A stretch of 64,000 nucleotides of DNA from a virus (taxonomy: Duplodnaviria; Caudoviricetes). The stretch is taken from the IMG/VR virus record IMGVR_UViG_3300014613_000025, positions 9,114 through 73,113 of that record; one strand, 5' to 3'. The notes under the pieces are model-generated. The model did not search any database, was not told the DNA's origin, and worked only from the letters and a program-made list of their open reading frames with translations. The number at the start of each line of letters is the position of its first letter. Positions within the stretch are counted from its first letter, which is position 1. Below are positions 23,057 through 36,009 of this stretch, piece after piece. A program made the translations under genes and the position numbers.

Positions 23057-23057
23057 A

Positions 23058-23306: not shown

Positions 23307-23321
23307 GGTGCTCTCAGTAGT

Positions 23322-23337
23322 TGCAAGTGCGATGCCA
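23322..23337 (-). promoter_or_regulatory. sigma54 promoter 2
   Basis: TGGCATCGCACTTGCA; ATG at +6. Confidence 0.8.
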
Positions 23338-23340
23338 CAG

Positions 23341-23529
23341 TTACCGGCCACGATAGGGCGAACTTGAGACGGTAGGCCGCTGCCCCCCGCCGTTGTCGTT
23401 GTCATGTGCGGCGGCATACCAGCCCTCGCGTTCGAGGTTCGACTTGGGGTTGTCCAAGTCTTGGATGGCTTCCCACATGACCCACATGACCCAACCGTGG
23501 TGCCTGCGCTCGTTATCCTGATTCGTCAT
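23341..23529 (-). CDS. Small protein MTNQDN...
   Basis: SD AGGAG. Confidence 0.5.
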   Translation of the reverse strand: MTNQDNERRHHGWVMWVMWEAIQDLDNPKSNLEREGWYAAAHDNDNGGGQRPTVSSSPYRGR

Positions 23530-23575
23530 GGCGACTCCTGCCGGGGTCACCGCGACCCCGTTGTGCGGGTTGGGG

Positions 23576-23824
23576 TTATGCGTCGAGTGCGTACTCCGCT
23601 GCGCAAGCGCGGCACATGGTCTGGCCGTCGAGGTATCCGCCTTCGGCACGGACCGGCGACTGGCCCTCTTGCGGTTGCAGGATGCGACCACAAGCGCAGC
23701 GGAACGCGCGGGCGGTTGCACCACGGTAGGCTGAGACCACCGCGTCAGCGTGGGCATCGGCATCGTAGCGGGCTTGGATTTCGGCGTGGGTCGCGTCTCG
23801 GTTGCTGTTGTTTTGGTTCTTCAT
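23576..23824 (-). CDS. Small Zn-ribbon cassette protein MKNQNN...
   Basis: Own sigma54 promoter; CACG...CRAC. Confidence 0.65.
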   Translation of the reverse strand: MKNQNNSNRDATHAEIQARYDADAHADAVVSAYRGATARAFRCACGRILQPQEGQSPVRAEGGYLDGQTMCRACAAEYALDA

Positions 23825-23839
23825 GGTACTCTCAACCTT

Positions 23840-23855
23840 TGCAATGCGTGTGCCA
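23840..23855 (-). promoter_or_regulatory. sigma54 promoter 3
   Basis: TGGCACACGCATTGCA; ATG at +6. Confidence 0.8.
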
Positions 23856-23858
23856 GGT

Positions 23859-24071
23859 TCAGCCGCCCATCTGTTCCGCTGACTCGCGCGCTTCGTTCTC
23901 GGCAGCCGCAAAGCGGAGAGCTTCGGCGACACCCTTCAGCGCGCGCTTGCTGCCCCGGAGTGCTCGTCCACACATCCTGACCTGCGCGTCGTCGCCGAAC
24001 CGGTTGGCCTCGTCGCGGAGTTTGCAGATTTGTTCGTAGGTGGGATTGCTGCTGTTGGTCTTGCTGGTCAT
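23859..24071 (-). CDS. Small protein MTSKTN...
   Basis: Leader AGGAGGACACGAACC-ATG; shares LRDEA/GD..QV..C pattern with 25369-25599. Confidence 0.65.
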   Translation of the reverse strand: MTSKTNSSNPTYEQICKLRDEANRFGDDAQVRMCGRALRGSKRALKGVAEALRFAAAENEARESAEQMGG

Positions 24072-24144
24072 GGTTCGTGTCCTCCTACGGCCTCAGGCCG
24101 GGAACCGCGAAGGCTACCCGGCCGGGGTTGGGGTTGGAGAGAGC

Positions 24145-24336
24145 CTATACGGCTACCGTGTATCCGTTGCGCTTAGCGTGGCGGTTGACGCCTTCGACCC
24201 ATTCCTGAGCCGATTCTTCCGACACGAAGTCCATCGTGCTTTGGATGGTGATGCCTTCGAGGTTGCCAGAGATGAAGGTCTGGGAGAAGGTGAGGGTGTA
24301 GGGGTAGGGGTTGCTGCTGTTGTTTTGGTTTTTCAT
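24145..24336 (-). CDS. Small cassette protein MKNQNN...
   Basis: Own sigma54 promoter. Confidence 0.65.
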   Translation of the reverse strand: MKNQNNSSNPYPYTLTFSQTFISGNLEGITIQSTMDFVSEESAQEWVEGVNRHAKRNGYTVAV

Positions 24337-24351
24337 GGTACCAATTCCTAA

Positions 24352-24367
24352 TGCAAACGCGGTGCCA
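24352..24367 (-). promoter_or_regulatory. sigma54 promoter 4
   Basis: TGGCACCGCGTTTGCA; ATG at +6. Confidence 0.8.
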
Positions 24368-24368
24368 A

Positions 24369-24635
24369 TCAGGCCGGGGTGTGCGCGCGGACGAGAGCAC
24401 GAACCGTGTTTTCGTAGGTTGCCGTGAAAACCCAGATGGCGGCATCGTAATCGCCAGCGAAGGTAGCCTTGGGGAATTCAACCTGAAACGACTGCCAAAG
24501 GCCCATGCTCATATCGGTATCGGGTTCGTCTCCGCTAAAGACGCAGTAGTTTACGTGATCTTCCGCAGCGTCGACTGCGAACTTGATGACGCGAGCGGTT
24601 GTCTTGCCGATGTCGTATTGGGTGATGTTCTTCAT
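24369..24635 (-). CDS. Small cassette protein MKNITQ...
   Basis: Own sigma54 promoter. Confidence 0.65.
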   Translation of the reverse strand: MKNITQYDIGKTTARVIKFAVDAAEDHVNYCVFSGDEPDTDMSMGLWQSFQVEFPKATFAGDYDAAIWVFTATYENTVRALVRAHTPA

Positions 24636-24650
24636 GGTGCCCCCAACCTA

Positions 24651-24666
24651 TGCACTCCGCATGCCA
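24651..24666 (-). promoter_or_regulatory. sigma54 promoter 5
   Basis: TGGCATGCGGAGTGCA; ATG at +6. Confidence 0.75.
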
Positions 24667-24732
24667 CGCGCAACCCGAAAGCGTAAACGCCTAGAACGAG
24701 GCTGCGCCGCGCATATCATTGCGCCGCCAGAC

Positions 24733-25124
24733 CACGACTTTGAAGTCAGGGCCATGCAAACTTTGCCGATTCGTCCAAAAGTGTATGGTCACTATTTGGC
24801 CTTGTCCTTAGAAACAAGCGGTATTGCGTTTGGTTGCGCGGATAACAACCATGGCATCCATGTCATGGTGTGCGAAAACGTCGGGGTTTTGGGGGTAACT
24901 TCAGCAGTCCTAATGTTACCGCGAGACGCTACCGGGGCCAGCGCTGACCATGACATCCATGTCATAGCGGATGGCCCCCAAACGCGCGATGCTCGGTAAA
25001 CGTAGGCTAACGTCCCCATGACATCCATGTCATAGCAAACCGGGTCGGCCTTGCCATGCTGCGCGAATACATGCGCAGCGATAGCGTTTTCGCGTTGCAG
25101 GGCGACTATGACATTGATGTCATA
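24733..25124. promoter_or_regulatory. Palindrome cluster A (5 sites, YAYGRC-N6-GTCRTR)
   Basis: Sites at 24733 (imperfect), 24850, 24949, 25017, 25107. Confidence 0.75.
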
Positions 25125-25138
25125 CCCATGAACCATGC

Positions 25139-25372
25139 CTAGAAAACGTCTCTCCGGGTCAACCGCTGGCTTGGTGCTCCACCCTCGCCGCGCAGGGTGG
25201 CCATGATGGCGAGGACATGCGCTATCGTATCGCGAGCCGCTTGTGTCTCGCACACGTCGGGGTCGGACGCTATCGGGGTTATCGCGTTCGCAAGCTCAGC
25301 CGCTAGGTCCGCCGCGTTGAAGGGCCGCTCGCTAGCGATACGCCTAGCGGCGTGGATGCCAACCAGACTCAC
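25139..25372 (-). CDS. Small hypothetical protein
   Basis: GTGA overlap with the upstream gene. Confidence 0.5.
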   Translation of the reverse strand: MSLVGIHAARRIASERPFNAADLAAELANAITPIASDPDVCETQAARDTIAHVLAIMATLRGEGGAPSQRLTRRDVF

Positions 25373-25599
25373 GACGGCCCCGCAGTGCCGCGAGGTTGGC
25401 TGTAGCGGGATTCCGCTACCGCCCCGGCGCAAGCGTCGCGAGCGAACCGTTGGGCCACCTCTGACGGGTAGCTGCCCCCGTCATCGAGGTACACCCCCAA
25501 CGCTATCTCGCATAGCTTCACCTGTTCAGTGTCGCCAGCCATGGCGGCTTCGTTGAGCAAGTCGCCAATCTGTCTGTCCGTCACGTAGTTTGATCCCAT
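25369..25599 (-). CDS. Small protein MGSNYV...
   Basis: SD GAAGGA. Confidence 0.55.
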   Translation of the reverse strand: MGSNYVTDRQIGDLLNEAAMAGDTEQVKLCEIALGVYLDDGGSYPSEVAQRFARDACAGAVAESRYSQPRGTAGPS

Positions 25600-25600
25600 G

Positions 25601-25777
25601 TTATTCGTCCTTCTCGGTTGCTGAGATGGCCTTTGATAGCGCCAGCGCGGTGTGCAGGATGGCGACCTGGACAAGTTCTCTGCCTTCAGCGGTAGACGGT
25701 TCGACCTTGTGTAACGCGTCCAGTGCCTCGTCCAGCGCCGCTAGCGCGGTAGCGTGCGGGGTGTGGTCCGTGGTCAT
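25601..25777 (-). CDS. Small protein MTTDHT...
   Basis: ATGA overlap. Confidence 0.55.
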   Translation of the reverse strand: MTTDHTPHATALAALDEALDALHKVEPSTAEGRELVQVAILHTALALSKAISATEKDE

Positions 25778-25995
25778 GACAGACGGTCCCATCCGCCGTT
25801 GCGCCGCTGGATTTCGACACGACCCCACGCGTCGTCAAAGTAGGGGCGCATGGCGCGAGCGAGCGCACGCTCCGCGCTTGTCACGGACTTGGCGCGCGTC
25901 GCGATGACGTGGCCGACATCGTTACCAGTCTCGCCCACTACCAACCGGAAGGTTGAGCCGTAGGCTTCGTTGGGGTCGTTCTTGTTCGTGGTCAT
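25774..25995 (-). CDS. Small cassette protein MTTNKN...
   Basis: sigma54 promoter plus SD AAGGAG. Confidence 0.65.
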   Translation of the reverse strand: MTTNKNDPNEAYGSTFRLVVGETGNDVGHVIATRAKSVTSAERALARAMRPYFDDAWGRVEIQRRNGGWDRLS

Positions 25996-26022
25996 GTTCG
26001 TGGTCTCCTTGTCTCTCAGCGT

Positions 26023-26038
26023 TGCAAGCGTTACGCCA
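26023..26038 (-). promoter_or_regulatory. sigma54 promoter 6
   Basis: TGGCGTAACGCTTGCA; SD-containing leader. Confidence 0.65.
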
Positions 26039-26357
26039 ACTGCCAACCCTTGGGCAAGTCACACGGCAAGAATTCCGCGTTACCGGCAACGATAACCCCG
26101 ACCGTTGGGCTCGCGACGCAACCGCACGCGCCGTCGCCAAAGGGCGACCCGTCCCACGGCACGACGCTAACGAGGTCAGCACTAGCGTTGTGCGCGCACA
26201 CCTCCGCAACGTCTCGCGACTCGACCATCACACACCACTCGTTCGCGCTTGGTCCTTCCAGGTCGAACCAGATTGCATCATCGCAAGCGAGTCCGTTAGG
26301 GTCTCCGCCGCGAAGGGTGGCGATGTGGAGCGCGCTGGGCTTGGTTGTCGTTGTCAT
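26031..26357 (-). CDS. Cassette protein MTTTTKP...
   Basis: sigma54 promoter plus SD GGAGGA. Confidence 0.65.
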   Translation of the reverse strand: MTTTTKPSALHIATLRGGDPNGLACDDAIWFDLEGPSANEWCVMVESRDVAEVCAHNASADLVSVVPWDGSPFGDGACGCVASPTVGVIVAGNAEFLPCDLPKGWQLA

Positions 26358-26384
26358 GTTCGTATCCTCCTACGCGCCTAAGCC

Positions 26385-26400
26385 TGCAAGGCGTGAGCCA
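26385..26400 (-). promoter_or_regulatory. sigma54 promoter 7
   Basis: TGGCTCACGCCTTGCA; SD-containing leader. Confidence 0.65.
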
Positions 26401-26426
26401 AGCAGGCGAAGCGGTGTGGGTTGTGG

Positions 26427-26990
26427 TTAGAAATTGTAATCGTAGTACTTGTGCCTCGCTCCGATGGTAACGCGTTCCGTGCTGCGCGACACTCGCCAAG
26501 TGCCATCCTTGCGGAGCGTGGCCTTGGTGGTGGGGCCATCCAAGTCTCGTTCGTAGGAGTAGCGCTGGACGCCTTCAGTATGGCCGAAGAACCCACCAGG
26601 TGTGAACGTCAACGCGTCAGGTTCGCCGGAATTGAAGCCGTTGAGCAGGGTGGCCTTGTCGCGCTGCAACGTGATTGTCTTGCCGTTAGCCGACACGGCG
26701 ATGACGGTTTGGGGAGTGGAGTCGCTGTAGTGGTGAATGGTGGCACCGTCACCAACCGCAGGCTTGTTCCGCGCCAACCGCATGGCCTTAGTGAACGAAC
26801 CTCCGCAATCACAGACAATATTTCGGACGTCCAATACTGATGGGGTGCGCCCGTGGCGCTCCATGGTAGCGACGATGATTTCGCGCAGCGAAGCGGTAGC
26901 GATTGACGGGTATGTCCAGCGCAGTAGGTAGTCCTCGCACAGTTCGTCAACGCGCTCGTTCTGGGTGTCGGTCAAGGTTGTCGTTGTCAT
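26427..26990 (-). CDS. Cassette protein MTTTTLT... (187 aa)
   Basis: sigma54 promoter plus SD GGAGGA. Confidence 0.7.
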   Translation of the reverse strand: MTTTTLTDTQNERVDELCEDYLLRWTYPSIATASLREIIVATMERHGRTPSVLDVRNIVCDCGGSFTKAMRLARNKPAVGDGATIHHYSDSTPQTVIAVSANGKTITLQRDKATLLNGFNSGEPDALTFTPGGFFGHTEGVQRYSYERDLDGPTTKATLRKDGTWRVSRSTERVTIGARHKYYDYNF

Positions 26991-27017
26991 TGTCGTTGTC
27001 CTCCTACGCGTTACCTT

Positions 27018-27033
27018 TGCAATTCTAGTGCCA
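27018..27033 (-). promoter_or_regulatory. sigma54 promoter 8
   Basis: TGGCACTAGAATTGCA; SD-containing leader. Confidence 0.8.
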
Positions 27034-27036
27034 CCG

Positions 27037-27258
27037 CTACGCCCTAGCCAAGAATCCTTTGCGGATTGCCAGGTACGCTTGCGACTGTTCGTTGCGGCCA
27101 TGCTTCGCACACGTTGCAGCCATACGGCCAGCGGCATCGGCAGCCATCATGGCGGCATCAACCGAGCCGTTGTAGCGGGCGAGTGCAAAGACCTTGGCTG
27201 CGCGGGTTGGCGTCAAGGAGCCGCTCAGTATCTCTTTGATTTGGTCGATGTAGTTCAT
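27037..27258 (-). CDS. Cassette protein MNYIDQ...
   Basis: Own sigma54 promoter. Confidence 0.65.
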   Translation of the reverse strand: MNYIDQIKEILSGSLTPTRAAKVFALARYNGSVDAAMMAADAAGRMAATCAKHGRNEQSQAYLAIRKGFLARA

Positions 27259-27271
27259 GACATCTTACCTT

Positions 27272-27287
27272 TGCAATCCTCGCGCCA
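27272..27287 (-). promoter_or_regulatory. sigma54 promoter 9
   Basis: TGGCGCGAGGATTGCA; ATG at +4. Confidence 0.75.
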
Positions 27288-27288
27288 A

Positions 27289-27477
27289 CTAGCGCCCGGT
27301 GTGCCTGAGATACCAGCGGACCGCGCCCGATTGAGTCTTGAACGTCTTGCTGACGGTAAACGTCATGGCGAGCCAAGTGCCGTCCGGTTGCGCGAAAACG
27401 CCGCTCGACAGGCTCTCGTTGTTGCCCATGTCAAGGGTCCGGTTCGTTACGGTCGGGGTTGTCGTTGTGGTCTTCAT
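27289..27477 (-). CDS. Cassette protein MKTTTT...
   Basis: Own sigma54 promoter. Confidence 0.65.
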   Translation of the reverse strand: MKTTTTTPTVTNRTLDMGNNESLSSGVFAQPDGTWLAMTFTVSKTFKTQSGAVRWYLRHTGR

Positions 27478-27492
27478 GATGCTTTCCTTCGG

Positions 27493-27508
27493 TGCAAACC
27501 TGATGCCA
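27493..27508 (-). promoter_or_regulatory. sigma54 promoter 10
   Basis: TGGCATCAGGTTTGCA; ATG at +6. Confidence 0.8.
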
Positions 27509-27512
27509 ACCG

Positions 27513-27749
27513 CTACACTTCGACGATGACGCAATCGCCATTGTCGATGGCGCGCACGAAGCTGGCGGTAGCACTGTTGGCCCAATACGAGCCGCAGTTT
27601 TCGAGGTAGCGCGAGAACACGCCAGCAAGTTGGGCAGACCTGAAAGTCTTGCGTGCGCGCTTGCCATTGATGGGGTCCGTGTAGCGGACCGTGGTGCGTC
27701 CGGTACGGGTTGTCGTGGTCTCGATGTCGGCGTTGTATTGAGTCGTCAT
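27513..27749 (-). CDS. Cassette protein MTTQYN...
   Basis: Own sigma54 promoter. Confidence 0.65.
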   Translation of the reverse strand: MTTQYNADIETTTTRTGRTTVRYTDPINGKRARKTFRSAQLAGVFSRYLENCGSYWANSATASFVRAIDNGDCVIVEV

Positions 27750-27764
27750 GATGCTTGTTCCTTA

Positions 27765-27780
27765 TGCGAGCGGCGTGCCA
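27765..27780 (-). promoter_or_regulatory. sigma54 promoter 11
   Basis: TGGCACGCCGCTCGCA; ATG at +6. Confidence 0.75.
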
Positions 27781-27781
27781 A

Positions 27782-28072
27782 TCACTCCCACGAACCGTTA
27801 CGCGTTCGGGTCAAGCCAACGGAGCGGCGGATGCCGTTGCTCGCGCGAGCCCTGGCGTTACGTGCGTTCCGCGCCTTGTCCTGCGTTGCCGCTTCGGTGC
27901 GTGCGCAAGTGCGTCCAGACTCGGTCAACGAAAGGTAATCGGCGTCGAATACGTCGCCTTCTGCGAGGCCGTAGGCCACAAGTGCGCCGAGAGTCTCCCA
28001 TCCGCATCGCGGGGTCTGGTTGAGGTAGAGGGCCAGGAGTGCATCGCGCTGGGTTCTGGTGAGCTTATTCAT
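27782..28072 (-). CDS. Cassette protein MNKLTR...
   Basis: Own sigma54 promoter. Confidence 0.65.
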   Translation of the reverse strand: MNKLTRTQRDALLALYLNQTPRCGWETLGALVAYGLAEGDVFDADYLSLTESGRTCARTEAATQDKARNARNARARASNGIRRSVGLTRTRNGSWE

Positions 28073-28085
28073 GGGAGATTCCTTA

Positions 28086-28101
28086 TGCGATACTTGTGCC
28101 A
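28086..28101 (-). promoter_or_regulatory. sigma54 promoter 12
   Basis: TGGCACAAGTATCGCA; ATG at +4. Confidence 0.75.
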
Positions 28102-28107
28102 AGTGGT

Positions 28108-28497
28108 CTAGCCGTTGTGGCGATGGCCGCTGCCGTTGCAACGGTAGCAGCAACCGCCGTTAATGTGGCGGTACTCAGGCAGCACACCAGTCCCACCACA
28201 GCGCGGGCACTTGGCGGCTTCGCGCTCTGCGTTGGCGACTGCTGCCTGAACCTGGTAAAGCGCATCCAAGCGCGTTTCCGTGGCGGAATCCATGGCCTTA
28301 GAGGTGGTCGCCATCAACAGGGCCAGCGGGTCGAAGGGTGCGGATGCATCGTAGGAGGCGTCAAGCGTCGGAGCGAAAGCAGCGCGAATCTCGGCGATAC
28401 GGTCGGCGATGGCATCGGAACCGGTTGCGATTGCCATTAGGTCAGCAACCACTTCGTCGTCGAGTGCGAGGAGGGCGGTGTTTTCGTTGGCGTTCAT
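28108..28497 (-). CDS. Cassette protein with C-terminal CxxCxGxG zinc finger
   Basis: CPRCGGTG...CYRCNGSG; own sigma54 promoter. Confidence 0.7.
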   Translation of the reverse strand: MNANENTALLALDDEVVADLMAIATGSDAIADRIAEIRAAFAPTLDASYDASAPFDPLALLMATTSKAMDSATETRLDALYQVQAAVANAEREAAKCPRCGGTGVLPEYRHINGGCCYRCNGSGHRHNG

Positions 28498-28512
28498 GAT
28501 GATAATTCCTAA

Positions 28513-28528
28513 TGCTAGATGCGTGCCA
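28513..28528 (-). promoter_or_regulatory. sigma54 promoter 13
   Basis: TGGCACGCATCTAGCA; ATG at +6. Confidence 0.75.
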
Positions 28529-28534
28529 ACTTGG

Positions 28535-28744
28535 CTAGCGAGCGCGGCGAGTCTTGCGAGTGGGCATCGTCAATTCGATATCGTCCACCGTGAGGGTATT
28601 GACGGCCTTGGTGGTATTGAGCCAGCGGACGCAGCGGTCGCACATGCAACGCCCCGCATCTTCGGAATCCATAAAGCAGACGTTGGTTCCGTAGGTGGGG
28701 TGGTTGGTGTCGATGGTAACGTTGGCGTGTTCTGCGTTCGTCAT
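28535..28744 (-). CDS. Cassette protein MTNAEH...
   Basis: Own sigma54 promoter; CMCDRC. Confidence 0.6.
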   Translation of the reverse strand: MTNAEHANVTIDTNHPTYGTNVCFMDSEDAGRCMCDRCVRWLNTTKAVNTLTVDDIELTMPTRKTRRAR

Positions 28745-28759
28745 GGTGCTTCGACACAA

Positions 28760-28775
28760 TGCAACAGCGATGCCA
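28760..28775 (-). promoter_or_regulatory. sigma54 promoter 14
   Basis: TGGCATCGCTGTTGCA; ATG at +6. Confidence 0.8.
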
Positions 28776-28867
28776 ACCAGACAACCTAGCCCAACCGCAT
28801 ATCATTACGCTGGCACTGCACGGAACCACCGATGTTCAGTGCTTTGGCGGGGCTGAAATGTATGGTG

Positions 28868-29335
28868 CCATACATGCAGGACTAAACGTATGACTTCAAT
28901 GTCATAGGGCCTTTAGCGCTTTGATTCTCGATGAAACGTGACGCCAAAGGGGAATGACCATACATGTAGGAGCAAACGTATGACTTGAAAGTCATAGGGC
29001 CAAACCGTCACGATGTGCCTAGAAAACAAGCGTGGCGCGCAAAGCGTGGCTGAATGACCATACACGTAGGAGCAAACGCATGGCGCCGTGGTCATACTGA
29101 ACAAGGCCCAACCCCATCGAGCGGACCTTGGCGCCGTGGTCCGATGTCGAATGTTCGCGTTGGCCTTGTTCTGTAGCGTTTAGCGTTCGTTGGGCCACGA
29201 GTCCGCAACGTTTGCATACCACCACGACATCAAAGTCATAGGTGTTTCGGGTTCGCGGAATGCCTTGAATCGTAGCGGCAAGCGCGGCGTGACCATACAT
29301 GCAGGAGCAAATGCATGACTTCAATGTCATGGTGC
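28868..29335. promoter_or_regulatory. Palindrome cluster B (5 sites; four lie in a 43-bp repeat unit)
   Basis: Sites at 28889, 28979, 29079, 29223, 29314. Confidence 0.75.
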
Positions 29336-29504
29336 TGTGTGGGATAGCGTGTGGGCTGGTGGCAACCTGTGGGAGCTATTCGTTGACAGCGTGGAATAGT
29401 GCGGCGTTTTGGACGGTGGGCCATTGCTGGGCCAAGGATGGGCCTAGGACGCGTCGGGGTGGCGCCATGGCATCCAAGGCCAACCTGTGGCCGAAAGGGC
29501 CGTC

Positions 29505-29837
29505 CTAGGCCAACGTCGCGCGCCAATACCAGAGACCGCGCGCGCCGGTTGACTGGTAGAATACCTCGCCACGGTCCCCAACGTCTCCGTGGGTTGGAGC
29601 GCCGATACCGTGCAGGTAGTATCGTTCGCCATCATCCGCGCGGATTGTCCAGACGTAGGCGTTATAGTGGCAGGGTTTGCCTACGATGGTAGCTGGTTTG
29701 CCTGTGGGCGAAATGTCAAGGTAAGCCTGGGCCAACCTAACCATGTTGGGCGCTCCGGGTATTGCGTGAGATACCAGATACTCTGCCAATTGCCTGGGTG
29801 ACATGTCGTCGGGGTCGATTGGATTATTCTGTTCCAC
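29505..29837 (-). CDS. Hypothetical protein
   Basis: GTG start with SD AAGGAGG. Confidence 0.65.
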   Translation of the reverse strand: MEQNNPIDPDDMSPRQLAEYLVSHAIPGAPNMVRLAQAYLDISPTGKPATIVGKPCHYNAYVWTIRADDGERYYLHGIGAPTHGDVGDRGEVFYQSTGARGLWYWRATLA

Positions 29838-29846
29838 TATTCCTCC

Positions 29847-30161
29847 TTACAGGCTCAGATAAAGGCCGGTCTCATCGGTGAACAAGGTCTTCAACCCATC
29901 GGCGTAGATGTCGCTATGCGCGCTGCGCTTGGTTGCCTTGCCGCCACGGACCGTCCAGAATTCAACGGTGTAGGTGTCGCTAGGGTCCAAGCGAACCTTG
30001 ACCATGTTTGACTTGTTACGGGCGCGCGCCTTGAACCGGAATGACGCGGTGTCCTCCGTCCCGAAGAACGATGACGCGCCAAGCATGGCGGAGAGTCGGC
30101 CCGTGCCGCCCATCTGGGCTAGGATTGTGTTTGCAACTTCGAGGTTGGTTTGCGTTGTCAT
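29847..30161 (-). CDS. Phage protein MTTQTNLEVANTILAQMGG...
   Basis: Own sigma54 promoter; TILAQMGG...DTYTVEF...DIYADGL pattern recalled from phage hypothetical proteins. Confidence 0.7.
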   Translation of the reverse strand: MTTQTNLEVANTILAQMGGTGRLSAMLGASSFFGTEDTASFRFKARARNKSNMVKVRLDPSDTYTVEFWTVRGGKATKRSAHSDIYADGLKTLFTDETGLYLSL

Positions 30162-30176
30162 GATGCTTTCCTGTCT

Positions 30177-30192
30177 TGCACGAGCCGTGCCA
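30177..30192 (-). promoter_or_regulatory. sigma54 promoter 15
   Basis: TGGCACGGCTCGTGCA; ATG at +6. Confidence 0.8.
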
Positions 30193-30474
30193 TCACTTGC
30201 TGGCGAGGTAGGCAACCACTCGGCGCAGGTCGCGTGCGCCAAGGGATCCGAACCTGTCAGCGATCCATCCGCCGTCCGAGTCGCTAACGCTAGCGCTCGT
30301 TCCTTTGCCGCAAGCGGAAGGGGTTACGGTAAGCACTGCGTCAGCCGGAACCTGGCGCACGCGAACCTTGGTCCCCTCGTAGCAACCCGCGTTGACGTAG
30401 GCGAGCGGTTGGCCCCAAAGGGCGGAGCAGAGGTCAGCGGCTGAGACGGTGATGGGGTTGGTGAAGTTCGTCAT
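30193..30474 (-). CDS. Cassette protein MTNFTN...
   Basis: Own sigma54 promoter. Confidence 0.65.
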   Translation of the reverse strand: MTNFTNPITVSAADLCSALWGQPLAYVNAGCYEGTKVRVRQVPADAVLTVTPSACGKGTSASVSDSDGGWIADRFGSLGARDLRRVVAYLASK

Positions 30475-30489
30475 GGTGTTGGTTCTCTT

Positions 30490-30505
30490 TGCACGAGCCG
30501 TGCCA
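30490..30505 (-). promoter_or_regulatory. sigma54 promoter 16
   Basis: TGGCACGGCTCGTGCA (identical to 15); ATG at +6. Confidence 0.8.
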
Positions 30506-30562
30506 CTAACGCAGCATGCCCCGCGTGGCATGCGCCAGCGGGGCGGTTGGCGTGGGTTCTGG

Positions 30563-30790
30563 CTACACGCTCTCGGCCACTTCCTGCAAACGCCGCATCC
30601 AATACGCCTTCTCTTCCCTGCCGCCAATCACCATCTCATTGGCTGCGCGGCAAGCCTCAACGTGCGAGTAAAACCCGCACTCGCCAGCGTTGGGCGCGTT
30701 GGCAACGAGGGAGGCGAATCGGGCCTTGCCAGCAAGGATGCAGCGTTCGGATTTGGCGATCTGGTTGGTGATGTAGGTTGCGGTATTCAT
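30563..30790 (-). CDS. Cassette protein MNTATY...
   Basis: sigma54 promoter plus SD AAGGAG. Confidence 0.65.
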   Translation of the reverse strand: MNTATYITNQIAKSERCILAGKARFASLVANAPNAGECGFYSHVEACRAANEMVIGGREEKAYWMRRLQEVAESV

Positions 30791-30818
30791 GGTTCGTGTT
30801 CTCCTTGCCAGATAGCAA

Positions 30819-30834
30819 TGCACTCCGCGTGCCA
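30819..30834 (-). promoter_or_regulatory. sigma54 promoter 17
   Basis: TGGCACGCGGAGTGCA; SD-containing leader. Confidence 0.75.
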
Positions 30835-30838
30835 ACCG

Positions 30839-31030
30839 CTACCAGTCCTCCAACCACTCGATGGTGGCCCCGTCTTCCAGCAAGGCCCACGGGCGGCCAT
30901 CGTGGTAAACGAGCACGAACCAAAGATGCCACTCGCCGATTTTGTTACACACGTGAGGGCGGCCCATGATGTCGCTGGTTTTGATGTAGTCGGAGCAAGC
31001 GGCTTGGGTCGTGAAGGTCATGGTATTCAT
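30839..31030 (-). CDS. Cassette protein MNTMTF...
   Basis: Own sigma54 promoter. Confidence 0.65.
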   Translation of the reverse strand: MNTMTFTTQAACSDYIKTSDIMGRPHVCNKIGEWHLWFVLVYHDGRPWALLEDGATIEWLEDW

Positions 31031-31045
31031 GGTGCTTGGTTCCTT

Positions 31046-31061
31046 TGCGAGACTCGTGCCA
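31046..31061 (-). promoter_or_regulatory. sigma54 promoter 18
   Basis: TGGCACGAGTCTCGCA; ATG at +6. Confidence 0.75.
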
Positions 31062-31065
31062 ATGT

Positions 31066-31266
31066 CTACGCTATCCTGAGACCTGACACCAGCCTCTGGT
31101 TCGCTCGGCTGTAGGTGGCGGTGCTGACTCGGTCAAGCTCTGCCTTTGCCGCTGCATCGCCAGTCCACGCCTTCGTTGTCTTGTCGAACGCGAATCCGCA
31201 GTCGCGGAGCAGTTTCGCTGCGGGGTAGGTGTTTCCGGTGATGGTGACTGTGTTCTCGTTGTTCAT
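31066..31266 (-). CDS. Cassette protein with GNTY...G..FD..TK.W motif (DUF5710/HARP-like)
   Basis: TITGNTYPAAKLLRDCGFAFDKTTKAW. Confidence 0.65.
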   Translation of the reverse strand: MNNENTVTITGNTYPAAKLLRDCGFAFDKTTKAWTGDAAAKAELDRVSTATYSRANQRLVSGLRIA

Positions 31267-31281
31267 GATGACTCTTCCTTA

Positions 31282-31297
31282 TGCACTCAGCGTGCCA
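31282..31297 (-). promoter_or_regulatory. sigma54 promoter 19
   Basis: TGGCACGCTGAGTGCA; ATG at +6. Confidence 0.8.
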
Positions 31298-31298
31298 A

Positions 31299-31466
31299 TC
31301 ATGCCCAGGTTTCGGTGCAGAGTACCTCGAACCCATTGACGCGACCCTTGCTGTCAAGCGATTCGCGCACCAGTCGGCGGACCTTGCGGCAAGTGTTGGT
31401 CTCCCAGAAGCAGCGGTATTCGACGGTCGGGGCCACGGTCGACTTGGTGTTGTTTTGGTTCTTCAT
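31299..31466 (-). CDS. 55-aa cassette protein MKNQNNTK..., not in the ORF track
   Basis: Own sigma54 promoter; TGA abuts the next promoter. Confidence 0.6.
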   Translation of the reverse strand: MKNQNNTKSTVAPTVEYRCFWETNTCRKVRRLVRESLDSKGRVNGFEVLCTETWA

Positions 31467-31481
31467 GGTACAAGTTACCTT

Positions 31482-31497
31482 TGCACGCGTCGTGCCA
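31482..31497 (-). promoter_or_regulatory. sigma54 promoter 20
   Basis: TGGCACGACGCGTGCA; ATG at +6. Confidence 0.8.
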
Positions 31498-31517
31498 GGT
31501 TCAACAAAACTAACCGT

Positions 31518-31784
31518 TCAGCATCCCCAGATCCAGATCTGGTAAGTGTTCAGATTGCCGTGTTCATGCAGATATTCGAGCGCATCGGCGAAGTCTTCGC
31601 GCGTCCAATCGAGCACGCGGATCGCTATCGATTCGTTCGAATAGCGCGGCTTGCGCGTTAGCATCTTTCCGTAGTCGTCGAGGTTCCACTCACCTCCCCT
31701 GGCTCCTCGTTCCAACAACGCACGCAAGCCACGGGGGGTAAAAGCCCAGTAGTGATCGTACTGCTGAACGTATATTCTAGACAT
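31518..31784 (-). CDS. Hypothetical protein MSRIYV...
   Basis: SD AAGGA; overlaps the upstream ORF. Confidence 0.6.
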   Translation of the reverse strand: MSRIYVQQYDHYWAFTPRGLRALLERGARGGEWNLDDYGKMLTRKPRYSNESIAIRVLDWTREDFADALEYLHEHGNLNTYQIWIWGC

Positions 31785-31941
31785 TGCAGCTATCTTCCTT
31801 GTCCAACCTAAGTTCCGTCGCTACGATCCTGCGAATGTAGGCTTCAATTTGGTCCCGCGATGCCATCCCAGGAATCCCTAGCCGCGTGGCTATCGTGCGG
31901 CGATCTTCGTCAGTTACCTCGACCAAAACTCGAATTTTCAT
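31777..31941 (-). CDS. Small protein MKIRVL...
   Basis: SD GGGGGG. Confidence 0.5.
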   Translation of the reverse strand: MKIRVLVEVTDEDRRTIATRLGIPGMASRDQIEAYIRRIVATELRLDKEDSCNV

Positions 31942-31949
31942 GTCCCCCC

Positions 31950-32231
31950 CTACGCTCGGCAAAGGTGGACCCAGATCGACTTGATCGTCCACGTCCCATA
32001 GTCGGCATCGTCTACCATGTCCAAGTCGAACATGCGGTCGACCACGGCGTCCGAAACCCGGCGCTCCCACACGGGCCGAGCGGAGTCGAAGATCGACCAC
32101 ATTTTCTCGCCAAGGCCCGGCCTCATCAGAGTGACGGTCCCAGTACACTCCGCGAGGGCCTTTCGCAATCCGGCGGGTAGGCGAGCGGGGTTGTTGTCTG
32201 TGCCCGCGGTGCGCTTGCTCGTGCTCTTCAT
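31950..32231 (-). CDS. Cassette protein MKSTSK...
   Basis: sigma54 promoter plus AGGAGGACACGAACC leader. Confidence 0.65.
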   Translation of the reverse strand: MKSTSKRTAGTDNNPARLPAGLRKALAECTGTVTLMRPGLGEKMWSIFDSARPVWERRVSDAVVDRMFDLDMVDDADYGTWTIKSIWVHLCRA

Positions 32232-32258
32232 GGTTCGTGTCCTCCTGCTTGTTATCAT

Positions 32259-32274
32259 TGCATTCAGCGTGCCA
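32259..32274 (-). promoter_or_regulatory. sigma54 promoter 21
   Basis: TGGCACGCTGAATGCA; SD-containing leader. Confidence 0.75.
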
Positions 32275-32275
32275 A

Positions 32276-32533
32276 TCACTCCCCGCAGAATCCGTCGTCG
32301 CATAGACAAGCCGTTGCGTTGCCTTTCGCCCAATCCTTGGCCGCCGTCAAGGCTCGGAACCACTTGCTCTTACCATTGTCCAGGCACACTTCGTATTCGG
32401 TCCCATGGATTTGGCTTACAAGCACCGTGATTGTTCCCTCGCTATTCCCATCGATGGCGACGTCAATCCGTGCGCTTCCGTCCCAGTTGGTGACCTTGTC
32501 TCCGAACGTGACCTTGTTTGTTTGAGTCTTCAT
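32276..32533 (-). CDS. Cassette protein MKTQTN...
   Basis: Own sigma54 promoter. Confidence 0.65.
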   Translation of the reverse strand: MKTQTNKVTFGDKVTNWDGSARIDVAIDGNSEGTITVLVSQIHGTEYEVCLDNGKSKWFRALTAAKDWAKGNATACLCDDGFCGE

Positions 32534-32548
32534 GGTACAAGTTACCTT

Positions 32549-32564
32549 TGCAGGACGTGTGCCA
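32549..32564 (-). promoter_or_regulatory. sigma54 promoter 22
   Basis: TGGCACACGTCCTGCA; ATG at +6. Confidence 0.75.
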
Positions 32565-32574
32565 ACCTGACGGC

Positions 32575-32784
32575 TCACTCGAATTCGGCGAACAGGTCAG
32601 GTTCGCCATCGGCGTCCACCGGGCGACCCTGGGCGACCCAATCGGCCTTGAATGCAGCGTGGCAAGCGGCAACGCGAGCGGATTCCGCTGCATCCGCGCG
32701 TCGCTCCTTAGCGGTGCGGTAGTAGTTCGCGGGGTTGCTGATGTAGGCGTGGACGTCTGCGAAGCTGGTTTGGTTGTTGTTCAT
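32575..32784 (-). CDS. Cassette protein MNNNQT...
   Basis: Own sigma54 promoter. Confidence 0.65.
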   Translation of the reverse strand: MNNNQTSFADVHAYISNPANYYRTAKERRADAAESARVAACHAAFKADWVAQGRPVDADGEPDLFAEFE

Positions 32785-32799
32785 GGTGCAATCCTACCT

Positions 32800-32815
32800 A
32801 GCACGCACTGTGCCA
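32800..32815 (-). promoter_or_regulatory. sigma54 promoter 23
   Basis: TGGCACAGTGCGTGCT; ATG at +6. Confidence 0.75.
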
Positions 32816-32883
32816 ATACCCCAACGACACCGCGAAGCGCTACGTCTACCGACGAAAGCGCGTTCCACTGAGTGGATTCATAC

Positions 32884-33309
32884 CACGACTTTCAAGTCGT
32901 GCCTGTGCAAAGTTTGCCGGTTTGGCCAAAAACGTATGGTCACTGTTCCGCGATACGCTATGAAACAAGGGTTAGCGTAACTTGCGCACACCTGAACACC
33001 GCACGACTTTCAAGTCGTGGTGTTGCTGGCATGCCTTGTTTTGTGGCGTTTGGCAAAGGGTACAAGTAATGCTGGTACCCTTGGGGCCACGGCCCGCAAC
33101 GGTGTGTGCGCTTGGTAGGACATGTGCGCTTGCCATGGCGTCAATGTCATACTGAACAAGCCAAACCGCACGACTTGCCGTAACCTGTAGGCTTTAGCCA
33201 CCACGACTTCGATGTCATGCTGAACAAGCCCCAATGGTGCACGGTTGTTGTGTTTGGCTTTAGTTGTGCGGATATCGTGGTAGGCGGCGGGTATGGCGTG
33301 GATGTCGTG
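32884..33309. promoter_or_regulatory. Palindrome cluster C (5 sites)
   Basis: Sites at 32884, 33002, 33134, 33202, 33292. Confidence 0.75.
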
Positions 33310-33328
33310 GTGGGTGTGCGTTCAGTGT

Positions 33329-33778
33329 CTAACCGACGATGCGCAACCCGGCATCGGCGACCATGGCCCGCACGATGTCAAGCGGAAGGTTGACCACCGC
33401 GACGCACCAGCCGTATCCGTAGCGCGTACGGCCCTCGTATTCATCGAAGCCAATCCGGCGCAGGGCGCGGATAGCAACGCCACGAGACGTCGCCTCAACC
33501 TCATATTCCCCAGCGGTATCCTGGTGGCTCAACTTGGTCGCAAGCGCACGGACTGCCTTGCGTGTCGAGTCGTCTCCGGTCAAGGTCGCGAGGCAATCGC
33601 CACCCATGGGACCGTGCGAGGTCAGGAAGACGTTGCCAATCCTCGCGCCGCAGCACACGCATGAGATGTTGGCAAAGGTTCCGCCAAGCGCTTCCAGGGC
33701 CGCTGGCGAGCCAGCAACCGCGAATCCTTCGAGGGCCACGCCGTCAAACTTGTCGCGGATCTTCTGGGTAAGTCGCAT
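33329..33778 (-). CDS. Zn-ribbon hypothetical protein downstream of the tRNA-like RNA
   Basis: SD GAGGGAG; CVCCG...GGDC. Confidence 0.65.
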   Translation of the reverse strand: MRLTQKIRDKFDGVALEGFAVAGSPAALEALGGTFANISCVCCGARIGNVFLTSHGPMGGDCLATLTGDDSTRKAVRALATKLSHQDTAGEYEVEATSRGVAIRALRRIGFDEYEGRTRYGYGWCVAVVNLPLDIVRAMVADAGLRIVG

Positions 33779-33804
33779 CGTCGTCTCCCTCTTCTCGTTG
33801 TCCT

Positions 33805-33889
33805 TGGTCGCAACCGTTGGAGTCGAACCAACCTTATACCACAATCACCCTGGTGGGCGCTCGCCGGAGCCTTTTCGTTGTGGGCTGCG
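33805..33889 (-). ncRNA. 85-nt tRNA-like RNA (acceptor stem, T arm and CCA; non-canonical core)
   Basis: CGCAGCC/GGTTGCG-A-CCA; GTTGG-TTCGACT-CCAAC; begins at +5 of sigma54 promoter 24. Confidence 0.75.
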
Positions 33890-33903
33890 ATGCTTGGTGA
33901 GTA

Positions 33904-33919
33904 TGCGAACGGCGTGCCA
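33904..33919 (-). promoter_or_regulatory. sigma54 promoter 24 (drives the tRNA-like RNA)
   Basis: TGGCACGCCGTTCGCA. Confidence 0.75.
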
Positions 33920-33921
33920 AG

Positions 33922-34113
33922 CTATGCGGCACGCTGGCTTTCCAACAGCGCTAGCCGCCAATACGCGGCCTCAAGCCGCTCGCCCACACGGAGGCCGTGC
34001 CAGGTGTGGGTTACGCCAGCGAACCGCCTATTGTTTAGGTCGCGAATCTCGACCTTGAGGTCAAGGATGCGACGTTGGATAAGCTCAGGAGTCATGCGGG
34101 TTGTGTTCGTCAT
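33922..34113 (-). CDS. Cassette protein MTNTTR...
   Basis: Own sigma54 promoter. Confidence 0.65.
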   Translation of the reverse strand: MTNTTRMTPELIQRRILDLKVEIRDLNNRRFAGVTHTWHGLRVGERLEAAYWRLALLESQRAA

Positions 34114-34126
34114 GGCTCTACTCCCA

Positions 34127-34142
34127 TGCACTCAGCGTGCCA
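34127..34142 (-). promoter_or_regulatory. sigma54 promoter 25
   Basis: TGGCACGCTGAGTGCA (identical to 19); ATG at +4. Confidence 0.8.
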
Positions 34143-34147
34143 AGCGC

Positions 34148-34411
34148 TCAGCGCGTTACCCTGAACCCCTGCGAGGTTGCGTTCAGGTAGACGTTCTCGG
34201 CGGCGATGCGGCAGTTGTTGCGGTGCGTTTCGGCATCGAGCAGAGCTTGCGGCCACTGCTCAGGTACACCGGCGCAGATCGTAGCGTACCGCAGCGCATT
34301 GTATGCGTGAATGGCCTTATCGTAGGCTTTCGTCGCCTTGTTCATGGCAACCTTGGCAGCGCGCGCGGTCGGGAAGGTCTTGGTCTCGGCGGGGTTGGCT
34401 TGGTTCGTCAT
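34148..34411 (-). CDS. Cassette protein MTNQAN...
   Basis: Own sigma54 promoter. Confidence 0.65.
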   Translation of the reverse strand: MTNQANPAETKTFPTARAAKVAMNKATKAYDKAIHAYNALRYATICAGVPEQWPQALLDAETHRNNCRIAAENVYLNATSQGFRVTR

Positions 34412-34426
34412 GGTGCAAACCCACTA

Positions 34427-34442
34427 TGCACGCACCATGCCA
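34427..34442 (-). promoter_or_regulatory. sigma54 promoter 26
   Basis: TGGCATGGTGCGTGCA; ATG at +6. Confidence 0.75.
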
Positions 34443-34509
34443 CGCAACACAAAAACGCGAAACGTCTACTCCCACAGGGACAACGTTGTTACACTAAGTA
34501 GATTCACAC

Positions 34510-34911
34510 CATGGCATTCAAGTCGTGCTATTGCAAAAGTTGCGTGATTGACCCAAAAGTGTATGGTCATTCCAAACGCGTCCTCAACGTTTCCGACATG
34601 TTGCGCGCCTAGTGAGTCATTCTTGACCCATGGCAAAACGGTCCTGGTCTGCACGAAGTGTCTTGTTTTGTAGCGGTTTGCGAAACGTGGCGGGCTAGGT
34701 CTGCCAGGTGTCGGGTTGTCGCGGCGAGACGATAGCCAACGGCCTACCATGACAGCGGTGTCATAGCAAAACGTCACATTAGCGAATCCTTCGAGGTTTA
34801 CGCTATGACATTGAAGTCATAGCATCGAGGTCCAAGACGGCTACGATGTGCTGGCGTGGCTTGTTCTGTAGCGATTGAGGTACGCGTGGCGGGTATGACA
34901 TTGATGTCATA
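34510..34911. promoter_or_regulatory. Palindrome cluster D (5 sites)
   Basis: Sites at 34510, 34629 (imperfect), 34748, 34804, 34894. Confidence 0.75.
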
Positions 34912-35191
34912 GGGTCTTGGCGGAGCGAAGGATTCGCGACGAAAGCGAGGTCAGCGCGTCACGGACCTTGCCGTCGCCATCGTCGTCCGCGCTATTGACG
35001 GCGTCAATTAGTCGCGACCATGCGGCTTCCTCTGCTCCCTCGTTGACGTGTAGCACGCCTGCGGCATGGTCGAACGTGCCAGGAAACGGCTCGTAGTCGC
35101 CGTCAAAGGCCAGGCAATCGTCAAACGCGGGGTCGAATACATAGATGGTCAACCCGCACGCCTGAATCTCGCCTACGCGGAATGTCGCCAT
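34907..35191 (-). CDS. Hypothetical protein MATFRV...
   Basis: TGATG coupling to the upstream gene; its stop lies inside a palindrome. Confidence 0.6.
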   Translation of the reverse strand: MATFRVGEIQACGLTIYVFDPAFDDCLAFDGDYEPFPGTFDHAAGVLHVNEGAEEAAWSRLIDAVNSADDDGDGKVRDALTSLSSRILRSAKTL

Positions 35192-35406
35192 CAGATGCCG
35201 CGACGCGCGCGCTCCTTTTGGAACAAGGACAATTCGGTGAGGTATCTTTCGCCGCCCATGCGCTGAACCCAGCTATTCGTGGCGGTAACGGTGAGCAGTC
35301 CTTCAAGAGCGAGGGAGCAGTCGCGATGCGACCACACCAGCTCGGAGTCACTCATCTTGCGGATGCGGTCGGCGATGCGCTTGGTTGCCTTGTCGGTGTT
35401 CTTCAT
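35191..35406 (-). CDS. Cassette protein MKNTDK...
   Basis: Own sigma54 promoter. Confidence 0.65.
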   Translation of the reverse strand: MKNTDKATKRIADRIRKMSDSELVWSHRDCSLALEGLLTVTATNSWVQRMGGERYLTELSLFQKERARRGI

Positions 35407-35421
35407 GGTGCTTTCCGAGTA

Positions 35422-35437
35422 TGCGAACGCTATGCCA
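35422..35437 (-). promoter_or_regulatory. sigma54 promoter 27
   Basis: TGGCATAGCGTTCGCA; ATG at +6. Confidence 0.75.
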
Positions 35438-35479
35438 TCGTTGCCGTAGCCTCAAAACCGCCAGGCTCGACACCCAAGC

Positions 35480-35641
35480 CATGACACGAATGTCATACCT
35501 AAACGCCGTTTCGCGATATTCGTGAGGTTTTCGCTATGACATTGGTGTCATGCTTAGGCGAGCGGTTGTCGGCTCGCTTCGCAATGTGCCTTTATTTGTA
35601 GCGATTATGCGCGGAGCGGGTGGTATGACATTGGTGTCATG
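35480..35641. promoter_or_regulatory. Palindrome cluster E (3 sites)
   Basis: Sites at 35480, 35535, 35624. Confidence 0.75.
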
Positions 35642-35652
35642 GCAGGCTGTGG

Positions 35653-35892
35653 TCATGCGTACATGGCGGCGTTCAAGGCCAGCCACGCTGCATCCACATG
35701 CGCGTTCAAGGTCTTGGCGTAGAGCCAGCGCGCCATGTTCACAGCCTTGCGGCTAGGCTTGCGGCTGCTGCTAGTGACGCACTGGATCCTGATCTCACCC
35801 AGGCAATCACAGGCGAACAAGTAGCCCCCGACTGTAACCGTCATGGGTGCGCCGCTGCCGTCCGAGTAGACTTCGATTGCTGTGGTTTTCAT
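35653..35892 (-). CDS. Cassette protein MKTTAI...
   Basis: Own sigma54 promoter. Confidence 0.6.
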   Translation of the reverse strand: MKTTAIEVYSDGSGAPMTVTVGGYLFACDCLGEIRIQCVTSSSRKPSRKAVNMARWLYAKTLNAHVDAAWLALNAAMYA

Positions 35893-35904
35893 ACCATCCT
35901 GCCT

Positions 35905-35920
35905 AGCACGTCGCATGCCA
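35905..35920 (-). promoter_or_regulatory. sigma54 promoter 28
   Basis: TGGCATGCGACGTGCT; ATG at +3. Confidence 0.7.
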
Positions 35921-35993
35921 ACGGTCCCAAACCCGTCCGCTAGCGCTTGACCATATCTCGCCGTTCCCCTCCAGCGGGAGTGACCCAAACCTG

Positions 35994-36009
35994 TGCACGT
36001 CGCATGCCA
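35994..36009 (-). promoter_or_regulatory. sigma54 promoter 29, outermost in the array
   Basis: TGGCATGCGACGTGCA; followed by SD and MVKR*. Confidence 0.7.

Follow-up and report, generated by a model that had tools for sequence, protein, structure and literature searches.

Transcription from a sigma54 promoter starts only after an ATP-driven activator has docked at its enhancer. Named upstream activating sequences (UASs) of this kind include the NtrC sites at glnAp2, the three GlrR sites (TGTC-N10-GACA) at glmY and the UASs of XylR and DmpR. Enhancers of the NtrC type can act through DNA loops of kilobase length. Here we describe a 64,000-nt stretch of phage DNA (referred to as the window throughout; IMG/VR record IMGVR_UViG_3300014613_000025), in which five gene-free islands, A to E, contain 23 copies of an 18-bp palindrome and precede runs of sigma54-type -24/-12 promoter elements. 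In all five islands, the nearest palindrome center lies 51–123 nt from a proximal TGGCAY-N5-xTGCW element. We consider it probable, from this arrangement and its recurrence elsewhere, that an NtrC-family activator, i.e., a bacterial enhancer-binding protein (bEBP), with a Fis-type helix-turn-helix (HTH) domain uses the palindromes as its upstream activating (enhancer) sites.

Among phages, Ceyssens et al. reportedly described rpoN-dependent -24/-12 promoters in the Pseudomonas phage YuA in 2008. To our knowledge, YuA is the one known sigma54 phage case, and phage gene control via a host sensor at sigma54 enhancers is essentially undescribed. A search of the literature turned up nothing relevant on either the consensus or sigma54 enhancers of phages. 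Among bacteria, FisR is a sigma54-dependent, sulfide-responsive activator of sqr/pdo operons in Cupriavidus pinatubonensis (cited in PMC13467558) and in Acinetobacter (PMC7315123). Sigma54 enhancer sites themselves are already known; what the literature searched does not describe is the occurrence of multi-site islands heading sigma54 promoter arrays in activator-less phages.

Results

Palindrome islands and their promoters

To locate the sites, all 18-mers were scored against the 12 consensus positions of the palindrome YAYGRC-N6-GYCRTR. This yielded 21 exact and two one-mismatch sites (24733 and 34629), all of them inside the five islands that the initial annotation had delimited from roughly 23 copies (Table 1). 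The pattern YAYGRC-N6-GTCRTR gave 39 strand-matches in the window compared with 0.31 expected, and none of 100 shuffles reached 39. The only exact matches outside the islands, at 14886 and 52446, are on one strand each and non-palindromic, and the record's 9 kb beyond the window contain no site scoring at least 11 of the 12 positions. The islands were also predicted to be non-coding, and this was borne out: they are effectively gene-free, and when the colinear paralogs A, C and D are aligned, the lengths of the indels are not multiples of three. Conservation among these three islands is limited to the palindromes, a single auxiliary element (see below) and the proximal promoter.

The pooled half-sites read Y-A-T/c-G-A/g-C-A/t-T with the core ATGACA/TGTCAT. 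The half-site consensus is matched on both sides in 21 of the 23 sites, whereas the arms are fully complementary in just eight, and hybrid sites (e.g., CACGAC...GTCATG) break the pairing and keep both half-sites. Since the half-sites are kept while arm pairing is mostly imperfect, selection acts on the half-site sequence, as would be expected with a dimeric DNA-binding protein, and this pattern of conservation indicates that the palindromes are recognized by a protein and not as hairpins.

The genes and promoters of the block are on the minus strand; therefore, upstream is rightward in window coordinates, and distances were measured from the palindrome center to the first base of the proximal TGGCAY. 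As the initial annotation had proposed, each island lies directly upstream of a sigma54-type promoter, with the proximal -24/-12 element at 51.5–122.5 nt from the nearest center. None of the sites overlaps the -24 element; all of them end at least 40 nt upstream. A second site is centered at 192.5–195.5 nt in islands A, C and D (195.5 nt also in E), and the upstream end of every island is a site doublet spaced 89–91 bp apart. The runs of promoters that follow the islands comprise one (E), three (D), nine (C), nine (B) and five (A) elements, and two more lie upstream of E. In total, the block has 28 -24/-12 elements, every one of them on the minus strand, compared with nine in the remaining 50 kb. 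The block promoters are near the consensus TGGCAC-N5-TTGCA, four of them being perfect 16-mers, and the ATG of a small gene follows each element after about 15 nt, sometimes about 25 nt. At the 15-nt spacing of most elements, a sigma54 start site would leave a leader of ~5 nt and put the Shine-Dalgarno-like GGAG/AGGA at or before +1 (23041–36009, minus strand). Neither sigma70-type promoters (6 vs 4.8 expected) nor intrinsic terminators (9 vs 14.8 expected) are enriched in the block.

Table 1 Palindrome islands, proximal promoters and associated elements in the window (site centers are given in nt upstream of the promoter named).
Feature	Position	Strand	Sites or sequence	Site centers
Array of 28–29 sigma54-type -24/-12 elements	23041–36009	-	about one per small gene	
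Island A	24733–25124	-	5 palindromes: 24733 (one mismatch), 24850, 24949, 25017, 25107	75.5, 192.5, 291.5, 359.5, 449.5 (promoter at 24666)
Proximal -24/-12 of island A	24651–24666	-	TGGCATGCGGAGTGCA	
Island B	28889–29331	-	5 palindromes: 28889, 28979, 29079, 29223, 29314	122.5 to 547.5 (promoter at 28775)
Proximal -24/-12 of island B	28760–28775	-	TGGCATCGCTGTTGCA	
Island C	32884–33309	-	5 palindromes: 32884, 33002, 33134, 33202, 33292	77.5, 195.5, 327.5, 395.5, 485.5 (promoter at 32815)
Proximal -24/-12 of island C	32800–32815	-	TGGCACAGTGCGTGCT	
Island D	34510–34911	-	5 palindromes, 18 bp each: 34510, 34629 (one mismatch), 34748, 34804, 34894	76.5, 195.5, 314.5, 370.5, 460.5 (promoter at 34442)
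Proximal -24/-12 of island D	34427–34442	-	TGGCATGGTGCGTGCA	
Island E	35480–35641	-	3 palindromes: 35480–35497, 35535–35552, 35624–35641	51.5, 106.5, 195.5 (TGGCAT at 35437)
Proximal -24/-12 of island E	35422–35437	-	TGGCATAGCGTTCGCA; ATG 15 nt later	
Auxiliary element beside proximal palindrome	24751–24793; copies 32902–32943, 34528–34570	-	TGACCATACAyTTTTGG-N8-GCAAAsTTTGCA; invariant block in A/C/D alignment	

The auxiliary element includes a small GCAAA-s-TTTGC dyad and may be the site for a second factor. A compressed, inverted form of it occurs in island B (28865–28888, 28955–28978, 29055–29078 and 29290–29313), where the plus strand has four copies of TGACCATACAyGyAGGAGCAAAyG, each then followed by a palindrome; the element TGACCATACAYGYAGGAGCAAAYG flanks each of four island B sites. 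In islands B to E, the palindromes of the 90-bp doublets have another recurrent motif between them, CTTGTTYTGTAGCG (minus strand CGCTACARAACAAG; about 29162–29178, 33034–33050, 34661–34677, 34859–34875 and 35591–35606), which does not match the IHF consensus.

The same module in other phages and metagenomes

We scanned IMG/VR for two palindromes 50–80 bp apart, obtained 25 loci, and then analyzed the whole records. Many of these loci have two to four copies of TATGACA-N4-TGTCATA at 30–85 nt upstream of TGGCAC-N5-xTGCA, and a second, divergent promoter is often present on the opposite side of the palindrome cluster. In nine records (G001, G002, G003, G004 and G411–G415), outward-facing -24/-12 elements lie within 20–160 bp of clusters of two to four palindromes. 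All five clusters of G002 have such an element within 160 bp (permutation P<0.0005), with one on either side of three clusters, and the single clusters of G003, G411, G412, G413 and G415 are likewise flanked by -24/-12 elements (permutation P 0.007–0.03). The G001 promoters are more divergent (TGGCAT-N5-GTGCT) and are located 82–170 bp from all four of its clusters. These phages mostly have two or three sites per promoter, unlike the phage studied here, and they have almost no genes in common, either with each other or with this phage; the exception is G413 and G414, which share structural genes with this phage.

The arrangement was also found in metagenomes. A scan for the palindrome followed after 40–70 nt by TGGCAC-N6-TGC matched at least 120 contigs, compared with ~14 expected by our own estimate. 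Among the matches listed (80 loci), there are 88 module instances, 39 of which have two or more sites. Among these same listed matches, site centers fall at ~57–62, 100–105 and 196–201 nt from TGGCAC, or at ~62 and 130 nt, and this stereotyped spacing spans GC contents of 0.39–0.73. The centers of island E fit the metagenomic pattern of roughly 57/101/197 nt. Many metagenomic modules likewise have a short promoter-to-ATG spacing of 12–15 nt.

A bacterial counterpart beside sqr

Two of the metagenome matches, L178 and L192, are bacterial, with trpD next door, and encode a 429-aa activator with the domain order PAS-Sigma54_activat-HTH_8. The activator gene is divergent from one CATGACA-N4-TGTCATG, which is followed after ~50 nt by TGGCACGGCGCTTGCT and an SQR-type sulfide:quinone reductase gene. 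Close homologs of the activator are from Thiobacillus, Hydrogenophilales and Sulfuriferula. When four orthologous intergenic regions were aligned (L192, L178, Thiobacillus sedimenti CP141769.1 and a Sulfuriferula metagenome-assembled genome), the palindrome and the promoter were kept and the spacer diverged, the 18-bp CATGAC-N6-GTCATG of Thiobacillus and Sulfuriferula being centered ~58 nt upstream of TGGCAC. We then collected 24 homologs of the activator from 19 of the 101 genomes of the order around G008. Nearly all of the 12 orthologs with a detectable divergent promoter (56–61% identity) have ATGACA/TGTCAT palindromes 52–70 nt upstream, in the forms CATGACA-N3-TGTCATG, TGACA-N3-TGTCA or TGTCATGACA; none of the four paralogs examined (44–45% identity) has such a palindrome. 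The presence of the palindromes at orthologs and their absence at paralogs therefore point to the ATGACA/TGTCAT half-site, on comparative grounds, as the likely recognition element of this sqr-linked PAS-AAA+-HTH_8 family. In its domain order and its SQR neighbor, the L192 activator resembles FisR.

A second bacterial case, L170, is a low-GC contig on which ATGACAAATTTGTCAT comes after the 3' end of a bEBP gene, with TGGCACAATTATTGCA 57 nt further on. Here, a long hairpin after the bEBP gene (L170:1340–1400) holds TGTCAT-TA-ATGACA, with the half-site order reversed, just before ATGACA-AATT-TGTCAT. A search for the motif upstream of bacterial sigma54 operons, which the initial annotation had expected to name both the bEBP and the host, thus provided a candidate activator family, sqr-linked and found in Thiobacillus and its relatives, and did not provide the host of the phage.

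Search for the binding protein in phages

Neither PF00158 (Sigma54_activat), PF04552 (the sigma54 DNA-binding domain) nor a GAFTGA loop was found in this contig or in the nine other module-bearing records, three of which are complete with terminal repeats. All-against-all clustering of the proteins from nine genomes and 18 metagenome loci gave no universal family. The only protein common to the first four phages compared was a phrog_9437 homolog, which in the window is a 104-aa protein (29847–30164, minus strand). Its gene adjoins a palindrome cluster in this phage, G001, G002, G003 and G411, and is the only gene common to them. We rejected it as the binder, given that its homologs occur in other phages without palindromes or -24/-12 elements and that it is absent from the complete G413.

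Pfam HTH_8 is present in G002, G413 and G411 and was not found in this phage (G000), G001 or G003; a dedicated HTH_8 profile likewise gave no match for this phage or for G001 and G003, both of which are complete. With a profile built from the phage HTH_8 proteins, 1.07 Mb of module-bearing DNA gave 16 matching frames, whereas 625 kb of unrelated phage loci, taken as a control, gave none. A palindrome lies within 271 bp of ten of these frames and within 51 bp of nine. Small HTH_8 proteins without AAA+ directly adjoin palindromes in G413, G002, L157, L163, L182, L196, L215 and L219. The phage HTH_8 architectures include stand-alone proteins of ~80–240 aa, a MUG113/T5orf172-HTH_8 fusion (G413) and a tandem HTH (G411). 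The G413 fusion (L141:3430–3900, corresponding to G413:83430–83900), in which a GIY-YIG-like, nuclease-like domain is joined to a Fis-type HTH, precedes a palindrome by 47 bp. Such a domain combination is unusual, and G413 is a complete structural relative of the phage studied here. The T5orf172 protein of the window (9505–10626) was considered as an HTH_8 regulator and rejected; it has only the N-terminal domain in common with the G413 protein, and no HTH.

Phage record and neighboring genes

The window corresponds to bases 9114–73113 of a linear viral contig of 73,113 bp in IMG/VR, with an estimated completeness of 78%. The contig carries terminase, head and tape-measure genes of siphovirus type, and from ~22.5 to 36.5 kb of the window it consists of small genes on the minus strand. 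The 36 small proteins of this block gave a single Pfam match (DUF1391) and no DNA-binding domain. Megablast against phages gave zero matches for the contig. The terminase, portal and capsid proteins have less than 42% identity to those of cultured phages, whose hosts are scattered, and the relatives of the terminase in genomes were uninformative as to the host. Homologs of the NeuA-like (NeuA-HAD) gene are spread across several phyla and indicate no single host taxon. A Sorangium prophage (L033) was considered as a host clue and set aside; it has two palindromes without a -24/-12 element, probably by chance.

Upstream of the small-gene block, the plus strand encodes a Thg1-like tRNA-His guanylyltransferase (11981–12727), an RNA ligase (13085–14422) and two radical-SAM proteins (17044–18087 and 18350–19378), one with a B12-binding domain and one of the SPASM type. 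This appears to be an RNA repair or modification cluster, which is unusual in a siphovirus. Just upstream of the terminase genes, a 177-aa open reading frame (ORF) at 44765–45298 (plus strand) has a ParB_N domain only. ParB_N or N6/N4-methylase proteins form the broadest family among the module-bearing phages (seven of nine) and are generic and common in phages.

Discussion

In the initial annotation, the palindromes were taken to bind a protein of the bEBP type that acts together with sigma54 promoters. Three lines of comparative sequence evidence argue strongly for this: the module geometry recurs in unrelated phages, Fis-type HTH genes adjoin the palindromes in some of them, and in bacteria the same palindrome occupies the UAS position of a bEBP-controlled promoter. 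Since the phage has no AAA+ activator and no detectable HTH_8 protein, the activator most likely comes from the host, as one of its bEBPs. Among the candidates, the sqr-linked PAS-AAA+-HTH_8 family fits best; it is FisR-like and by that resemblance presumably sulfide-responsive, and its own UAS has the same half-site. According to the mechanism that we propose, each 18-mer would be a dyad site for a dimer of the Fis-type HTH_8 domain of the host bEBP, and three or more dimers on an island of three to five sites would assemble the AAA+ ring. DNA looping would then bring the ring to the closed complex of sigma54-RNA polymerase at the -24/-12 element, 50–120 bp downstream, where it would spend ATP to open the complex. 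The proximal promoter is at a classic UAS distance; the ring could possibly also contact further promoters of each run, as the initial annotation envisaged in calling the islands enhancer hubs, the distal ones requiring loops of 0.3–3.5 kb. In the phages that carry them, HTH_8 proteins consisting of the DNA-binding domain (DBD) only probably compete for the same sites or modulate them.

Several observations weigh against the enhancer interpretation. About 23 of the 28 promoters have no palindrome within several hundred bp, and the predicted transcription start precedes the ATG by only ~5 nt, an unusual distance for sigma54 promoters. The inter-site spacings (55, 68, 90, 100, 118, 132 and 144 bp) exhibit no helical phasing, and no match to the IHF consensus was found in the islands. 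At most orthologs of the candidate bEBP, the half-sites are separated by N3 or by no spacer, rather than by N4. A strict search for the full module in 401 Pseudomonadota genomes gave two matches and two control matches, which is the chance level, and single sites in these genomes are scattered, with no promoter or bEBP close by; therefore, hosts using the exact 18-mer would be rare or lineage-restricted. Finally, since the contig is only 78% complete, the rest of the phage genome could encode a binder.

Other explanations account for parts of the data. The sites could be operators of a phage DBD-only HTH_8 protein lacking the ATPase, which would repress or time the promoters, for instance by displacing the host activator. 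HTH_8 proteins without AAA+ do adjoin the palindromes in G413, G002 and the metagenomic loci named above, and such proteins cannot remodel the sigma54 holoenzyme themselves. For phages of this kind, the repressor operators that the initial annotation had allowed for are conceivable; yet neither Pfam nor the dedicated profile detects an HTH_8 protein in this phage, the complete G001 or G003, the 36 block proteins lack a DNA-binding domain, and the sites, at least 40 nt upstream of the -24 element, are unlike CI/Cro-type operators, which overlap the core promoter. We judge the operator explanation unlikely, although it is compatible with the enhancer interpretation and both may coexist in other phages. 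We give much less credence to the idea that the palindromes are a parS-like centromere or a sponge, bound by a ParB-type or other DNA-organizing phage protein and unrelated to transcription. The dispersed clusters of palindromes and the ORF at 44765–45298 are in keeping with it, but that ORF, the sole candidate for a ParB and a member of a generic ParB_N/methylase family, has no HTH and is 9 kb away in the packaging module, so that the earlier suggestion of parS-like sites finds little to build on. Moreover, a parS function would leave unexplained the fixed distance to the -24/-12 elements in unrelated phages and the footprint at the bacterial sqr promoter.

It is still harder to believe that the palindromes work as hairpins, be they RNA terminators, processing sites or N4-type single-stranded DNA hairpin promoters. 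Their 6–7 bp arms could pair, and the islands are located between transcription units; however, complete arm complementarity is restricted to 8 of 23 sites while the half-site sequence is conserved, the sites are not followed by T-tracts, and terminators are fewer than expected (9 vs 14.8). The arm sequence, beyond its pairing, is kept across phages with GC contents of 0.39–0.73. The islands gave no Rfam match, which together with the non-triplet indels and the conservation of half-sites rather than pairing also speaks against their being structured RNAs or translated, two outcomes that the initial annotation had named as fatal to its proposal. Equally improbable, in our opinion, are replication-origin iterons or recombination hot spots that shuffle cassettes. 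The paralogy of the cassettes that form islands A, C and D makes it clear that duplication or recombination has taken place here, but it would be odd to have five origins dispersed in this way, no adjacent initiator gene was found, and neither function would explain the coupling to -24/-12 elements, HTH_8 genes and bEBP genes.

With enhancer sites as the preferred interpretation, ~28 genes on sigma54 promoters in a phage without its own activator imply that the on-switch of the block would be handed to a host sensor protein. A broader model, which we offer tentatively and regard as speculative, is that many unrelated phages (GC 0.39–0.73) tie a small-gene, presumably early, program to a signal-sensing host bEBP, the candidate being a FisR-type sulfide/persulfide sensor of sulfur-oxidizing bacteria, with DBD-only HTH_8 proteins acting as decoys or switches; in the phage studied here, the five islands would each drive up to nine promoters over kilobases. 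If this is true, whether phage genes are expressed would depend on the physiological state of the host, and the abundance of the module in metagenomes suggests that this may be a common strategy. The module could also provide a handle for predicting hosts and for learning which host signals license infection, as well as a compact, portable enhancer/promoter cassette for synthetic biology.

Compared with known systems, the present phage is like YuA in being a siphovirus that would use host sigma54 for some of its promoters. The YuA record (NC_010116) annotates rpoN-dependent -24/-12 promoters, but YuA has just three of them, in the late region, and the palindrome was not found there even at 10 of 12 matches. 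The likeness to classic sigma54 UASs is closer: dyad sites of 17–18 bp occur in groups of two to five, ~60–200 bp upstream of a GG-N10-GC promoter, and the expected binder is a Fis-type HTH dimer, three of which would make one hexamer. Unlike classic UASs, the phage sites are carried without an activator gene, in five islands of 160–440 bp heading arrays of up to nine promoters, and they are widely spaced (55–144 bp) rather than adjacent, with no IHF site found. FisR-type bacterial promoters differ from the phage islands in having one or two sites, with N3 or zero spacing at many orthologs. Their distance to the promoter, ~58 nt (52–70), is comparable to that of island E (51.5 nt); it is ~76 nt in A, C and D and 122.5 nt in B. 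At the Thiobacillus-type FisR-like orthologs, the ATGACA/TGTCAT half-site and the N4-spaced 18-mer are identical in form to those of the phage.

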